Source: Octopus sinensis
Taxonomy: Eukaryota
Assembly (NCBI RefSeq): GCF_006345805.1
Contig: NW_021836926.1
Location: forward strand, 1-22,473
DNA length: 22,473 nt
Direction: 5' to 3'
Under the pieces are notes generated by a model that had not been told where the DNA came from, ran no database searches, and worked only from the letters and a program-made list of their open reading frames with translations. Below, in pieces: positions 268-19,205 of this stretch. Positions within the stretch are counted from its first letter, which is position 1; every line of letters starts with the position of its first letter. Made by a program: the position numbers and the translations under genes.

Positions 268-390
268 TATAATATCTGCAAGATTAAGAGTTGTGGAGTA
301 ATAAAATTTAACGGTATACTTATTTAAAATGCAGTGATGCTTGTGGTTCGTAGAAAAGATATTATTTAATATATTAAAGAAAATTTTTGG
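268..390 (-). mobile_element. Degenerate Penelope-like retroelement fragment (RT to GIY-YIG linker region)
   Basis: Minus-strand manual translation PKIFFNILNNIFSTNHKHHCILNKYTVKFYYSTTLNLADII resembles the conserved PLE motif KFLxLIDKHFPxxHKxHKIFNRxTVKxSYSxxxN. An upstream in-frame stop indicates decay. Confidence 0.65.
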
Positions 391-1227
391 GTATGGTTTT
401 TGCTTTTCGCGTTAAACCGCGTTGCGTTCCTTTTGTTTTAATATCTCTATTTTTTTCTATCGTAGTTACTAATAGTTTTTAAGTGAGGTTCCTCGTAATT
501 ACTCTTAATGGACAATCTCAAGAATCTCAAGTTTGGGAATTTTGTTTTAGAAATATCAGAATAGATTATGTTATTTCGTACCTTACATTTTAGATTTGAT
601 GGAGATTTTGTATTAGTTGTGCACTTGCCGCCAGCTTCATCATTATTCTTAGATTTTAACATATTATAGTTTTCACTTTTCTGTTTGGTTATATGTTCGC
701 ACTCAAGATTAATAGATTGACCATATTCGTTTATTAGTTTAGTCATATTATTCTGATAATTTGTAGGTTTATTAGTTTTGTCTCCAGCTGTATCAGTTCT
801 TTTTTTTAATTCTTATTCTCAGAGCCGCCACTCATTATTTTCCTAGTCATATTCGTGATTGTATTATCATTATCATTATCACGTTTACTTTCCGTATTAC
901 AACATTTAGACGGTTTATGAAAAGTATTAAGTGGTTTATAAATTTGCTTTGTATGTTTATGTTGAGTAATCACTTTAAAATCAGAATTGTTTGTATTCGG
1001 GGAAGAAATAAATTGAAACTAGATCAAAACCATTTTTCAACAAAACTCCATTATGATGTTTAGATTTATTACTAAATATTTCTGCATTATAATATTCATA
1101 GTTCTTATTAAATACTTCTATGTTAGAAGGAAGTCTAAAGGAAATATTCTTTACAAGATTACGTATATAATTGATTTTGGATGATAGGAAGCTTTCTGAA
1201 TTTTATCCTTTCTTATGCTACGGAGAT

Positions 1228-5637: not shown

Positions 5638-6050
5638 ATAGGATTTTCCCTACACTTTATAATTAAGCATTTCCTCTTAAATCCCAGGTATTCTAAAATC
5701 TGTCATAAAAAATTGTATTAAGGTAAACTGTGGTTGCACGAATAATTTTACTGCTTTCATGGCGTTATGAATCAAAGAAAACCGTCCACTATGTAAATTC
5801 AATTAGCCCAGTATCTTTTCTCTCAACAGTATATGTCTAATGCATAAGTTTATCGAACTAAGTTTTCTCTTACAAATAGCAAGGAAGCAGAAAAATAACG
5901 AGGACTTCCTGGAAACACCATTTAAAAGAAGATTCTCACAACATATGTACATATTCAGGAATTCGAAATGACTCATTACCACTCTGCTGTCCAAAAATAT
6001 CTAGAGCTGAAAGGATAGTGATATTAACAATTCTTGTCCATTTTAGAACA
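5638..6050 (+). mobile_element. Degenerate Penelope-like element: linker plus GIY-YIG endonuclease remnant
   Basis: Plus-strand pieces IIKHFLLNPRYSKI, IKVNCGCTNN, FSLNSICL and ETPFKRRFSQHMYIFRNSK*LITTLLSKNI*S*KDSDIN follow the PLE motif order (HFP..HKI..KVSYSC; CPLxGxCL; FKxRxxxHxxSFR...TxLSKxIWxLKD). Confidence 0.75.
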
Positions 6051-7445: not shown

Positions 7446-7825
7446 TGTCTCTAGAAATTGTGTGTCCTTTATAATTTTAATTAACTTATCGCGATGACAA
7501 ATACACTGCAAAAAGTAATTTATTCTAAGTTTATGAACGTTATAAATTTCCTTTAACAATCTCCTATTGTATATTTATTTATTTATTTATTCATTTATTT
7601 ATTTTTCTCCCTGATCTTCAAAATGATTCCATTAGATGAGAAAATGCAAATCTTATTCTCTGTTTAATAGTTAGAATAATATTTATGAGGGATTCTAAAA
7701 AGAAATGCACCTAATAGAAATTGGATTTCGAACAGGAGAAGAGAATGCATCAAAGAAAGCTTCATCGAATTTCAGACCGTAAAATAGTGGCTTTTTCTGC
7801 AAAGCTACTAAAATCATTATACATT

Positions 7826-8387
7826 CATTTCTACTCTAAGCGCAAGGACCGAAATTTTTGGGGACGGAGCTAGTCGATTAGATCGAACCCAGTACGCAAC
7901 TGGTACTTAATTTATCAACCCCCGAAAGGCAAAGTCGACCTCAGGGGAATTTGAACTTAGAACGTAAAGACTGGCGAAATACCTATTTCTTTACAACCCA
8001 CAAGGGACTAAACACAGAGGGGACAAACAAGGACAGACAAACGGAAAAAGTCGGTTTTATCGACCCCAGTGCGTAACTTATTTAATCGACCCCGAAAGGA
8101 TGAAAAGCAAAGTCGACCTCGGCGGAATTTGAACTCAGAACGTAACGGCAGACGAAATACCTATTTCTTTACTACCCACAAGGGACTAAACACAGAGAGG
8201 ACAAACAAGGACAGACAAACGGATTAAGTCGATTACATCGACCCCAGTGCGTAACTGGTACTTAATTTATCGACCTCAAAAGGATGTAAGGCAAAGTCGA
8301 CCTCGGCGGAATTTGAACTCAGAACGTAACGGCAGACGAAATACTGCTAAGCATTTAGCCCGGCGTGCTAACGTTTCTGCAGCCTTA
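7826..8387 (-). mobile_element. Trimeric tRNA-derived SINE, family C (octopus OR-like), flanked by TSD
   Basis: Three tandem units (about 8387-8162, 8161-7984, 7983-7826), each with (G)AGTTCAAATTCC...AGGTCGACTTTGC. TSD AAAATCATTATA at 7810-7821 and 8388-8399. Confidence 0.92.
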
Positions 8388-10915: not shown

Positions 10916-11155
10916 TTTTTTCCCTTCTCTTTTCTTTACTACCCACAAGGGGCTAAACACAGAGAGGACAAACAAGGAGAGACAAACAGATTAAGTCGAT
11001 TACATCGACTCCAGTGCGGAACTGGTACTTATTTAATCGACCCCGAAAGGATGAAAGGCAAAGTCGACCTCGGTGGAATTTGAACTCAGAACGTAGCGGC
11101 AAATACCGCTAGGCATTTCGCCCGCTGTGCTAACGTTTTCTGCCAGCTCGCCGCC
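10916..11155 (-). mobile_element. Monomeric full-length SINE family C
   Basis: Minus strand starts GGCGGCGAGCTGGCAGAAAACGTTAGC, has a GAGTTCAAATTC B-box and an A-rich tail. Short TSD AACATT at 10910-10915 and 11156-11161. Confidence 0.92.
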
Positions 11156-11690: not shown

Positions 11691-12081
11691 TATATAGTTA
11701 TATAAAACAATATTTTCCGTTCAATAATACTGAAATTATGAGTAGAGTGAGAACGTTTACTAAGGAGATAAATACAGAGTTAAGGCGCTAGGGAGATAAA
11801 TAGTGAGGTAAGGTGCACTTTATTAGTAATTTTACATCATTATCACGGACGTAAAAGCCAAAAAGATAAATGTGGTGTAAGGATATTTAATATACTGTAA
11901 TATACAGTGAAGTAATGTTTCAAATCTGATAAAGTTCACTATAATGAAACTAATCTTCGCTTTAATTCGTTGGTGCCTCTTCTATGAGATACTTGTAAGT
12001 CAATTTACTCTTTCATTTCATTTTAATATTCATTGCTTCGTGCGACACGACTCCTCCGGGGCAGAATTCTTGAGTGCGAGC

Positions 12082-12486
12082 GGGCAGAAACGTTAGCACG
12101 CCGGGCGAAATGCGTAGCCGTATTTCGTCTGTCTTTACGTTCTGAGTTCAAATTCCGCCGAGGTCGACTTTACCTTTCATCCTTTCGGGGTCGATAAATT
12201 AAGTAACAGTTATGCAGTGGGGTCGATGTAATCGACTTAATCCGTTTGTCTGTCCTTGTTTGTCCCCTCTGTGTTTAGCCCCTTGTGGGTAGTAAAGAAA
12301 TAGGTATTTCGTCTGCCGTTACGTTCTGAGTTCAAATTCTGCCGAGGTCGACTTTGCCTTTCATCCCTTCGGGGTCGATAAATTAAGTAACAGTTATGCA
12401 GTGGGGTCGATGTAATCGGCTTAATCCCTTTGTCTGTCCTTGTTTGTCCCCTCTGTATTTAGCTCCTTGCGGGCAATAAAGAAATA
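12082..12486 (+). mobile_element. Dimeric SINE family C with 19-bp TSD
   Basis: Two units joined at AAAGAAATAG|GTATTTCGTCTG (~12303). TSD AGAATTCTT(G/T)AGTGCGAGC at 12063-12081 and 12487-12505. Confidence 0.93.
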
Positions 12487-12659
12487 AGAATTCTTTAGTG
12501 CGAGCTCCCCCCCCCCATGGCAAGATTTAAAAGTACCACTTGTAAAGTAAAGTAAACGTTACTTATACTTCTCTTTGCGCTTGCATCCACACCCTGGTTG
12601 ATATTGCCTATTTCTAGGCCCCGTAGAAGTGCTCAGCAGTAAAATTGGTTTTCCATTGA

Positions 12660-12860
12660 CTTCACATACAAGGACAGCAATTTCTGAGGTGGAGGTAAGT
12701 CAATTAAATCAACCTAAGTACTTAACTGCTACTTATTTATAGACCCCGAAAGGATGAAAGGCAAAGTCGACCTCGGAATTTGAACTCAGAACGTAAAGAC
12801 GGACGAAATACTGCTAAGCATTTTGCCCCGCACAGTAACGATTCTGCCAGCTTGCCCCGC
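12660..12860 (-). mobile_element. SINE family C copy (older, alternative tail)
   Basis: GACCCCGAAAGGATGAAAGGCAAAGTCGACCTCGG...GAACTCAGAACG...TCTGCCAGCT is homologous to the other family C copies. Confidence 0.9.
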
Positions 12861-15761: not shown

Positions 15762-15920
15762 CGGTAAGAAGTTTGCTTCTGAAGCACATAATTCCAAGTT
15801 CAGTCCCCCTATGTGGCATCTTGGGCAGGTGTCTTCTAATATAGCCCCGAAAGCCTGGGCTGGCCAAAGCTTTGTGAGTGAATTTGGCAGAGGAAAACTG
15901 AAAGACACCCGTCGTGTGTG
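15762..15920 (+). mobile_element. SINE family A 5' half
   Basis: GGTAAGAAGTTTGCTTC...AGTTCAGTCCC...TTGGGCAGGTGTCTTCT is the reverse-complement homologue of 1405-1550. Confidence 0.88.
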
Positions 15921-16447
15921 TATACCCCCCCCCCCACACACACATAAAATTAATAATAATGTACATATGTATATAATTATATCAAGGGAGCTTGGGTGAA
16001 AACGACCTGTCTCCAGCATACTTGAAGTGCCGATACTTTCAGAAAGCTATCAAAAGCTCCAGCTAAGTATACAGATGGCTGAAAGCGGGCTAGTGAGAGA
16101 GAATTAAGAAGACCTCACGTTAATTGTGAACTGGTTCCAATTTCTGCATGAAAGCAAAAAATAATTATATACATATCTACATTATTAATTTTATGTATTA
16201 ATTGCTAACTACTTGATAAAAATCATTATCGTGGTTTTTATTCTAATATTCTTTTATGAATTCATACATATATATATATAGTGATGGTATGTTGTTAACT
16301 TAATGTTGCAGTCCCAGGAAAGGGAAGAATGCTATTGCTATTTACCCCCAGGAAACACTGTTTCCAGTTAGCTACGTGAAACAAGCGTTCTGTGTCCCTA
16401 AGTTTTCAAACAGGGAAGATAAGCACCTCCACCCAGCAAAGCCAGCA

Positions 16448-16490
16448 TCCAAAGACTAGTTTCAGAGTTATTGCGCTTCATCAGTCTGGA
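16448..16490 (-). ncRNA. Minimal type-I hammerhead ribozyme motif (copy 1)
   Basis: Minus strand reads TCCAGA-CTGATGA-AGCGCAATAACTCT-GAAA-CTAG-TC-TTTGGA. Core intact, palindromic short stem III, 6-bp stem I with one G-U pair. Confidence 0.75.
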
Positions 16491-16711
16491 ATAGCTGTTG
16501 AAAACTTATAGAATTCCAAGTGAAATAAATTCACTGATCTACAAAATTAGAAATATTGCATTTCTAAATGTCGTAGAGAGACTTATACAGTAGCAGCACG
16601 ACAAAGTGACGGTTTGTTACCAACCCTAATGTGGCAGTCCCAGGAAATGGAAGGCTGAACAAACCATCACTTTCTCGTGAATAAGCATCGACAGCTCGCA
16701 AGCCTAGCTAT

Positions 16712-16754
16712 TCCAGACTGATGAAGCGCAATAACTCTGAAACTAGTCTCTGGA
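16712..16754 (+). ncRNA. Minimal type-I hammerhead ribozyme motif (copy 2)
   Basis: TCCAGA(16712-17)-CTGATGA(16718-24)-AGCGCAATAACTCT-GAAA(16739-42)-CTAG-TC(16747-48)-TCTGGA(16749-54). Perfect 6-bp stem I; predicted cleavage after GUC at 16748. Confidence 0.8.
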
Positions 16755-16760
16755 TGCTGG

Positions 16761-16764
<4 letters not shown>

Positions 16765-16802
<38 letters not shown>
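16765..16802. repeat. (TA)n microsatellite
   Basis: Seen directly. Confidence 0.95.
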
Positions 16803-16805
<3 letters not shown>

Positions 16806-16952
16806 GATGGGCTTCTTTCAGTTTTCGTCTACCAAATCTACGCACAAGGCTTTGGTCGGCAAGAGGCCATAGTAGAAGACACCTGCCCAAGGTGCTATGC
16901 ATTGAGACTGAACCCGGAACCATGTGGCTGGTAAACAAGCCACTTACCACAC
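16803..16952 (-). mobile_element. SINE family A 5' half
   Basis: Homologous to 1405-1553. Confidence 0.9.
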
Positions 16953-16993
16953 ACACACTCGCGCGCGCGCACATACACAAATTGATAGGTAAT

Positions 16994-17397: not shown

Positions 17398-17555
17398 TGG
17401 AGCCGGCTTCTTTCGGATTTTGTCTACCAAATCCACTTGCGCACCTTGGTCGGCCCCGGGCTACCGTAGAAGACACTTACCTGAGGTGCCAAACATCGGG
17501 ACTGAACCCATAAGCACGTGGTTGGGAAGTAAAGATCTTACCACACACTCACCTG
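17398..17555 (-). mobile_element. SINE family A 5' half (diverged)
   Basis: GGCTTCTTTC...TCTACCAAATCCACT...GAAGACACTT...GGGACTGAACCC...CTTACCACAC is homologous to the other family A copies. Confidence 0.85.
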
Positions 17556-18111: not shown

Positions 18112-18240
18112 TTCTGCCGAGGTCGACTTCACCAGTCATCCTTTGGGGTCGATAAACTAACTACCAGCTAAACAGTTGGGTCAGTGCAATCGACTCACTC
18201 TATCCCTCAAAATGCTGGCCTTGTGCCAAAATTTGAAACC
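18112..18240 (+). mobile_element. SINE family C 3' part
   Basis: TTCTGCCGAGGTCGACTT...CATCCTTTGGGGTCGATAAA...GGCCTTGTGCCAAAATTTGAAACC. Confidence 0.85.
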
Positions 18241-18903: not shown

Positions 18904-19205
18904 AGAGGTGAGCTGATAGAATACTTAGCACACCAGAAAAGAATGCTTAGCGGCATTTCGTCCGCTCTGAGTTCTAATTCCGCCGAGGTCGACTTTGCCT
19001 TTCATCCTTTCAGGGTCGAAATATTAAGTACCGGCTGCATACTGGGGCCGATCTAATCGACTGGCTCCTTCCCCCCAAATTTTGGCCCTTGTGCCTAAAG
19101 TAGAAAAGAATTGATAAAATACATATCAATCGATCACTGGGGTCGATGTAATTGTCTTTCCCACTTCTCTGAAATTGCCGGCCTTGTACCAAAATCTGAA
19201 ACTGT
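18904..19205 (+). mobile_element. SINE family C copy plus a second partial tail unit
   Basis: GGTGAGCTG...TTAGCA...GAGTTCTAATTCCGCCGAGGTCGACTTTGCCTTTCATCC...GGCCCTTGTGCCTAAAGTAGAAA; second tail CACTGGGGTCGATGTAAT...GGCCTTGTACCAAAATCTGAAAC. Confidence 0.88.

Follow-up and report, generated by a model that had tools for sequence, protein, structure and literature searches.

Positions 16280-16764 of a contig from Octopus sinensis (NW_021836926.1, of which the whole stretch of 22,473 nt was analysed and is called the window here) carry two hammerhead motifs in opposite orientation, which raises the question of what kind of element left them there and by which enzyme it was moved. A first-pass annotation made from the sequence had reconstructed from the permuted pieces of this locus a head-to-tail monomer of about 251 nt with one ribozyme per unit, resembling the small circular RNAs known as retrozymes. 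According to the present analysis, the locus is rather, with a probability of about three in four, a decayed copy, inverted in part, of a non-coding ~350-nt repeat that has one hammerhead per unit, likely put into (TA)n by a borrowed Penelope-like reverse transcriptase (RT).

The locus is composed of a minus arm running from ~16655 to 16280 and a plus arm running from 16658 to 16764, which are joined at their 5' ends and have (TA)n runs on their outer sides. The main arm (16280..16655, minus) comprises ~1.07 units of the ~350-nt repeat, matches the natural copies L004 and L022 collinearly with the exception of a single 30-nt gap, and ends 3' at site A, the commonest 3' end of the family. The segment 16497-16655, which the first-pass annotation had overlooked, is the continuation of this arm and overlaps the arm's own end by 49 nt (16605-16653 versus 16280-16327, minus). 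Copy 1 of the hammerhead motif, of type I, is located at 16448..16490 (minus; predicted cut after GUC at 16454) and consists of stem I, CUGAUGA, stem II with one mismatch, GAAA and a minimal palindromic stem III. Alignment to L022 places the junction of the 30-nt deletion, with 3-nt microhomology, at 16493..16494 (minus); this deletion has removed the stem I outer 5' strand together with the position at which Tx1-like LINEs are inserted in other copies. A palindromic hairpin at 16547..16567 (minus), recognised by sequence, fold and end clustering, marks site B, the second common 3' end of the family, and is internal in the window copy. The inverted arm (16658..16764, plus), attached to the main arm's 5' end, lacks 104 nt internally compared with the natural 355-nt unit of L022 (junction at 16678..16679, plus, specific to this locus) and carries copy 2 of the hammerhead, likewise of type I (16712..16754, plus; predicted cut after GUC at 16748). 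The unstranded (TA)n flank at the main arm's 3' end (16268..16279) is the likely insertion target, the same flank being common among copies, and a second one, equally without strand and evident from the sequence, adjoins the 3' end of the inverted arm (16765..16802). The hammerhead regions 16438-16496 and 16706-16764 are identical at 58 of 59 nt. Identity within the locus thus differs between the inverted hammerhead arms (98%) and the direct overlap (82%), and gene conversion between the two arms, later than the insertion, is likely.

Other repeats are found in the same window; a tRNA search of it gave none. One copy of a second, unrelated SINE-like repeat (16801-16960, 1402-1554, 15785-15917 and 17405-17552) is located to the right of the hammerhead locus. 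A non-coding repeat of ~235 nt (7817-8380, 10925-11152, 12076-12492, 12696-12855, 18112-18195 and 18942-19062) often occurs as partial tandems whose period is 184 nt; the 3' tail of this repeat can be aligned with that of an ORF1-only Tx1-like LINE (score 56 versus a shuffle mean of 18 and maximum of 29, n=500), and it may be a SINE moved by this LINE.

The pieces from which the 251-nt monomer had been assembled are real: AACATACCATCACT has its end at 16280 on the minus strand; on the plus strand, 34 nt separate AACAAACCATCACT, which begins at 16658, from the hammerhead. A true 251-nt family could therefore be read from the plus arm, which does link the site-A motif to the hammerhead via these 34 nt. 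In the assembly, however, this reading is refuted, as its junction matches the genome once, in the window itself, with up to 2 mismatches allowed, compared to 700 matches for the normal continuation and 1 for the control. Nor was any joint of the 251-nt type present among the RNA-seq reads described below. The real unit measures 349-355 nt, and the smaller size arises because the plus arm lacks a clean 104 nt of 355 (355 - 104 = 251). The 251-nt form is a deletion private to the window locus, and a monomer family of that size has virtually no likelihood left. What endures of the original retrozyme-type reading is a dispersed non-coding repeat with one hammerhead per unit in a genome with Penelope-type helpers; its size and its junction do not.

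Both hammerhead cores of that annotation were borne out, at 16484-16454 (minus) and 16718-16748 (plus), and in both arms the motif follows the order stem I, CUGAUGA, stem II, GAAA, four-base palindrome, GUC and stem I partner. A loose core pattern, which matches the window 5 times with overlaps at 3 places, is only modestly above chance there, as shuffled sequences average 0.72 matches and 2 of 100 attain 5; the 31-nt hammerhead pattern has 43 exact genomic matches versus 0 for the control. Because Rfam, run on the whole window and two short stretches, matched no hammerhead family either in the window or in a copy of a sister family, giving microsatellite-driven noise only, the hammerhead call rests on the core, the stems and the comparison of families. 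In family A, to which the window copy belongs, a 6-bp stem I extending through internal loops is combined with a 4-bp stem II and a stem III of 1-2 bp with a palindromic loop. Such a 6/4/1-2 bp layout is canonical for metazoan type I hammerheads, which cleave efficiently as a dimer only (PMC4209133). Activity is made less likely by the base of stem II, which in family A is A-U at the position where G10.1-C11.1 is usually conserved (PMC4209133), and by one further stem II pair that is broken in the window copies. The palindromic minimal stem III resembles that of HHR_Amex1 from axolotl (Cervera and de la Pena 2020, PMC7229834).

Conservation of the fold can be followed in two sister families, B and C, which came from behind LINE ends, so that pairing played no part in picking them, and in which the core is kept and the stems differ. 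With an anchored parse (13 of 14 copies, L087 being unparsed), stem I pairing in B and C reaches 69/78 versus a partner-swap mean of 54, a value equalled in 0 of 5000 swaps; a MAFFT cross-family alignment, in which stem I was shifted, was set aside. Dimer co-folding on energy alone did not give the active fold. In the read-through RNA of the window, the two arms pair with each other into one long hairpin, and since its hammerheads face opposite ways and fold in this manner, the window copy cannot yield a monomer; it is predicted to be inactive, a dead fragment. A different hammerhead motif was observed in L099 (minus, 272 and 832), where it recurs with a 560-nt period beside a fragment of a Penelope-like element (PLE).

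The unit itself is defined by predicted cut sites 349 nt apart in L004, a natural tandem of 2.4 units, and by a period of 355 nt in L022. Its longest open frame is 64 codons (six frames, 840 nt), its GC content is 0.40-0.41, and the circular folds computed for 2 units are 62-65% paired, with z -3.2 and -2.1 relative to 60 shuffles. The genomic matches to the normal-continuation motif indicate at least 700 sites. A genome search with the minus arm yielded 1967 first-look candidates, 40 of them scored. The locus counts given here are for 74 non-redundant loci, duplicates and 3 loci overlapping LINE-picked ones being excluded. Family A is old, as pairwise identity among 48 loci is 87% at the median and 95% at most. 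Collinear pieces longer than one unit occur in 20 of the 74 loci, the longest having 2.4 units, and long arrays of the full unit are absent from all 74. When within-locus identity was used as a rolling-circle test, direct overlaps proved to be 82-94% identical, like the family median. The tandem copies of L004 are 94% alike, above that median, which fits later DNA-level duplication. In L244 (G000:C1:208015000-208017500), moreover, a local tandem array has grown out of a 125-nt piece of the unit that includes site A and excludes the hammerhead, forming a satellite derived from the hammerhead repeat. Both loci would suit a family that spread as DNA, in the manner of a satellite or MITE-like element, with the hammerhead as a passive relic. 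Fixed 3' ends, scattered 5' ends, 5' inversions and occurrence on many contigs are signatures of retrotransposition, however, and the stems have been maintained through sequence change in the sister families; hence, such a spread is considered very unlikely.

These end positions are the main source of information on how the ~350-nt repeat was inserted. Among 113 outer 3' ends, 91 fall into two intervals covering 40 of the 349 unit positions (13 expected), namely site A at unit positions 165-176, after an AC-rich stretch (42 ends), and site B at 214-241, after the palindromic hairpin (49 ends), counts which are partly query-biased, since the queries that retrieved 54 of the 74 loci end at site A or span it. 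For the 20 loci picked by the core alone, a hand count places 22 of 31 ends in the two intervals. The distance between the sites is ~55 nt, and 5' ends are scattered across the whole unit. Both orientations are present in 39 of the 74 loci; of their 39 outward-facing arm pairs, 26 combine an end at 140-176 with a site-B end (19 with the strict site-A interval), 2 are A+A, none is B+B and 11 are of other kinds, including that of the window, whose plus arm stops 16 nt past the cut. (TA)n adjoins many outer ends, and flanks are mostly microsatellite.

Partial tandems, inverted 5'-truncated copies, a one-sided tail of 30-40 bp and a bias for (TA)n are known traits of PLEs and their pseudo-LTRs (pLTRs) (Craig et al. 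2021, PMC8557442), and the octopus repeat has in common with them the partial tandem, the inverted 5'-truncated arm, the one-sided tail and the microsatellite target of (TA)n type. As described for a PLE protein, AT-rich DNA is nicked, synthesis begins at an AC-rich stem-loop within the RNA, and the template is mainly RNA that has remained uncut (Frangieh et al. 2024, PMC11167929). Site A likewise follows an AC-rich stretch, similar to the internal start site of PAc from anole, and in both cases the template is uncut at the hammerhead (PMC11167929). In contrast to PLEs, the octopus unit has no ORF, its tail measures ~55 nt versus 30-40 bp (PMC8557442), and it is unlike both sampled PLE families in sequence.

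Penelope-type elements are nevertheless at hand in this genome. Of the two remnants noted earlier in the window, the one at the contig start was confirmed at 277..411 (minus) by tblastn against the ORF of L097 (56% identity, E 3e-9); it is a remnant of a Penelope-like RT-to-endonuclease linker, 16 kb off and outside the hammerhead element. The other, at 5638-6050, was missed by tblastn with the same ORF, although a frameshifted, GIY-YIG-endonuclease-like stretch can be made out there by eye only. Genome-wide, at least two PLE families are abundant (3284 and 5047 first-look candidates), which, judging from their motifs, we take to be Neptune-type and Poseidon-type. Since the unit is without DNA similarity to either of them in the 29 loci sampled of each, it is from the insertion anatomy that we infer a mobilisation of the unit in trans by PLE protein. 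The pLTR of one abundant PLE family (L111, L115 and L116) bears its own hammerhead and has two 3' ends on (TA)n, and this family is a candidate for the helper.

As every insertion hallmark is PLE-like and PLE pLTRs carry hammerheads themselves, the unit could alternatively be the detached pLTR of a coding PLE that is rare or extinct in the genome, the more so as the PLE sample covers two families with 29 loci each. Units are joined head-to-tail without an ORF between them, however, and the RT plus GIY-YIG ORF that lies between the pLTRs of an autonomous PLE is lacking from the ORF-less unit. No contiguous PLE ORF was found within 1.5 kb at the 74 loci, and tblastn with PLE fragments matched only 2 of these, in neither case contiguous with the unit. 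Also at odds with a detached pLTR are the 5' ends scattered over the whole unit and the shared upstream flanks touching the element, which, common repeats aside, are LINE 3' ends only (48 loci), as well as the canonical 6 bp / 4 bp / 1-2 bp layout versus the long helix II of minimal PLE hammerheads. A detached pLTR is therefore regarded as unlikely.

Under the preferred reading of a non-coding unit moved by a borrowed enzyme, the state of its RNA template can be judged from where the copies begin. Because 71 of 111 pieces cross the predicted cut site and only 2 begin within 5 nt of it, cut linear monomers are not the usual template. An RNA intact across the cut site may well be a circle, which would explain the regeneration of copies longer than one unit; almost as probably, it could be an uncut multimer, which fits the anole PLE result (PMC11167929) and a LINE chimera in L227 described below.

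Transcripts were sought in RNA-seq runs whose species match and library type are uncertain. When three runs (~6% of each) were compared with one unit of L005 at a threshold of 82% likeness, 388-476 reads matched per 11.5-12.9 million records. Reads of the family run in both directions and are mostly less than 90% alike to the copy used as reference, which shows low-level transcription of relatives of the unit. Head-to-tail joints leading back 349 nt were present in 3 of 4 runs, with 9, 9 and 5 distinct starts, in short reads which cannot separate a circle from a tandem; a pile-up of read ends at the predicted cut site was not seen in these data. At L005:1730-1762, the motif preceding site B has the highest read depth; the reads there have loose ends that come from other sequences, and a few of them agree closely among themselves and are family B-like, hinting at a younger, expressed sister family.

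A second kind of element is involved with this repeat, as several of its copies start at one position, directly behind a polyadenylation-like signal. Using two different LINE 3' ends as queries (best 40 of 168 and best 40 of 807 candidates scored; 40 and 30 loci taken), 69 complete LINE 3' ends were collected, 50 of which are placed directly before family A, B or C, a number that includes 4 seed loci and 4 exemplars of B and C themselves. Without the seed loci, the share is 46 of 65. By blast, family A stands behind 34 of the ends, B behind 7 and C behind 9; a target remnant plus the 5' end of another LINE comes next in 8 cases, and 11 ends gave no such match. An earlier count of the loose core motif behind LINE ends (46 of 69 versus 5.6% background) contained at least 2 false positives and is superseded by these blast classes. 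The hammerhead core follows the LINE end at ~25-28 nt, and a CTAGC-like motif occurs within the first 24 nt after it in 63 of 69 cases versus 17% in the background. The repeat is found on both sides of the LINE, with a target duplication of 12-17 bp, in L226 (a 5-kb element), L231 (internally deleted), L234 (5'-truncated) and L071 and L080 (ORF1-only, 1.7-1.9 kb). L121, tried as a full-length insertion, is actually a nested mix.

The domains detected in the LINE are RVT_1 (E 1e-13) and zf-RVT (E 4e-9), together with Exo_endo_phos (E 3e-5) and zf-CCHC (E 0.01), the latter two below the Pfam cut-off; LINE relatives have the same domains, and the closest named protein relative of one LINE is from an octopod. 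This set is of L1/Tx1 type, and from domain layout and behaviour we take the family to be Tx1, the probable clade being placed by domains. The LINE 3' ends had also been considered as LTR ends, which is ruled out by a CCHC ORF1, the RT and zf-RVT. Many independent insertions are suggested by the differing targets and LINE families and by the occurrence of both truncated copies and LINE tandems. Insertion falls within the extended stem I, on its outer 5' strand, and the hammerhead consequently stays whole downstream of the LINE. The window copy contains no LINE, and its minus arm is without the insertion site.

With 50 of 69 LINE ends leading into a hammerhead unit, and with L014 and L059 holding a LINE 3' end plus the unit and no unit upstream, the hammerhead could be thought of as the 3' tail of the Tx1-like LINE, or as a SINE-like partner moved by LINE enzymes. 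This is highly improbable, as complete LINEs and 5'-truncated ones alike have the repeat on either side, with target duplication, three divergent hammerhead families stand behind the same LINE family, and 8 LINE ends lead into a target remnant and another LINE 5' end instead. Most units, moreover, are LINE-free, a LINE-type end at that position being present in 6 of 74 loci. In L227, finally, a chimera of LINE end and unit is inverted and ends at sites A and B, which makes the LINE piece a passenger and indicates that such chimeras were themselves copied in PLE fashion.

Both the ~350-nt repeat and the LINE can be compared with known systems. Non-LTR retrozymes of animals, such as those of mussel (~350-390 bp) and Rtz331 and Rtz353 of axolotl, have one type I hammerhead per non-coding unit of 170-400 nt, as is the case here, and are further alike in a GC content below 50%, a self-paired fold, the presence of PLEs in the same genome and, probably, head-to-tail order (Cervera and de la Pena 2020, PMC7229834). 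The octopus repeat, in which a single type I hammerhead motif per unit is combined with a size within 150-450 bp, GC below 50%, no coding capacity and a highly self-paired fold, fits a non-LTR retrozyme for which cleavage and circles are predicted. Unlike the retrozymes of that study, it mostly occurs as 0.5-1.6 units with inversions and forms no long arrays, whereas coral has dimers to 62-mers (PMC7229834); it is also old (87% pairwise) and weak in RNA-seq, and its cleavage and circles are predicted. Its clear PLE-type tail is unreported in the main text of that paper, and the same holds for any targeting by LINEs (PMC7229834).

For Tx1 elements, snRNA genes, microsatellites and other transposons are known targets, with Tx1L inserting into Tx1D, Keno into U2 and Tx1-Mar into Mariner-N4 (Kojima 2015, PMC4494074). 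The octopus LINE is like these target-specific elements in having an ORF1 with CCHC knuckle and an ORF2 with AP endonuclease, RT and zf-RVT, as well as in its fixed position in a multicopy repeat, its tandem insertions parted by target duplication and a share of flanks in one target far over the 20% rule (PMC4494074). A hammerhead repeat superfamily is absent from the Tx1 targets in the text of that work, one figure of which has an unnamed 'satellite' class (PMC4494074). Literature searches, whose scope did not extend to Repbase, Dfam or the PMC7229834 supplement with its further invertebrate repeats, any of which may already contain the family, returned neither a cephalopod retrozyme nor Tx1 targeting of hammerhead repeats. 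Judged by that literature, the window locus is a dead member of a retrozyme-like family that is new and shows strong signs of PLE-type insertion, and landing of LINEs in hammerhead repeats is of a kind absent from it.

Combining these observations, the following course of events is proposed. Loci longer than one unit would be transcribed, whereupon two hammerheads in one RNA may pair via their palindromic stem III and cleave it; the resulting monomers may be closed into circles by ligation. A Penelope-like protein would then nick AT-rich DNA, and reverse transcription would start inside the RNA at site A or B on a template intact across the cut. Strand switches could finally give rise to the inverted arm and the microhomology deletions. 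More tentatively, and with doubt prevailing, Penelope enzymes might spread a superfamily of ribozyme circles while Tx1 LINEs evolved to land at a conserved position shortly upstream of the hammerhead, the repeat serving them as safe haven and promoter and the hammerhead trimming or even circularising LINE transcripts, similar to the use of rDNA and a ribozyme by the retrotransposon R2, with LINE pieces riding along when chimeric RNA is copied by Penelope enzymes.

So far, PLEs have been only a strong candidate for the enzyme that moves animal retrozymes (PMC7229834). A non-coding hammerhead repeat with the PLE-specific two-end tail at countable loci provides two defined start sites and allows circular and uncut templates to be compared, while the LINE insertions add a target class missing from the searched literature and a natural endonuclease with a short, defined site.
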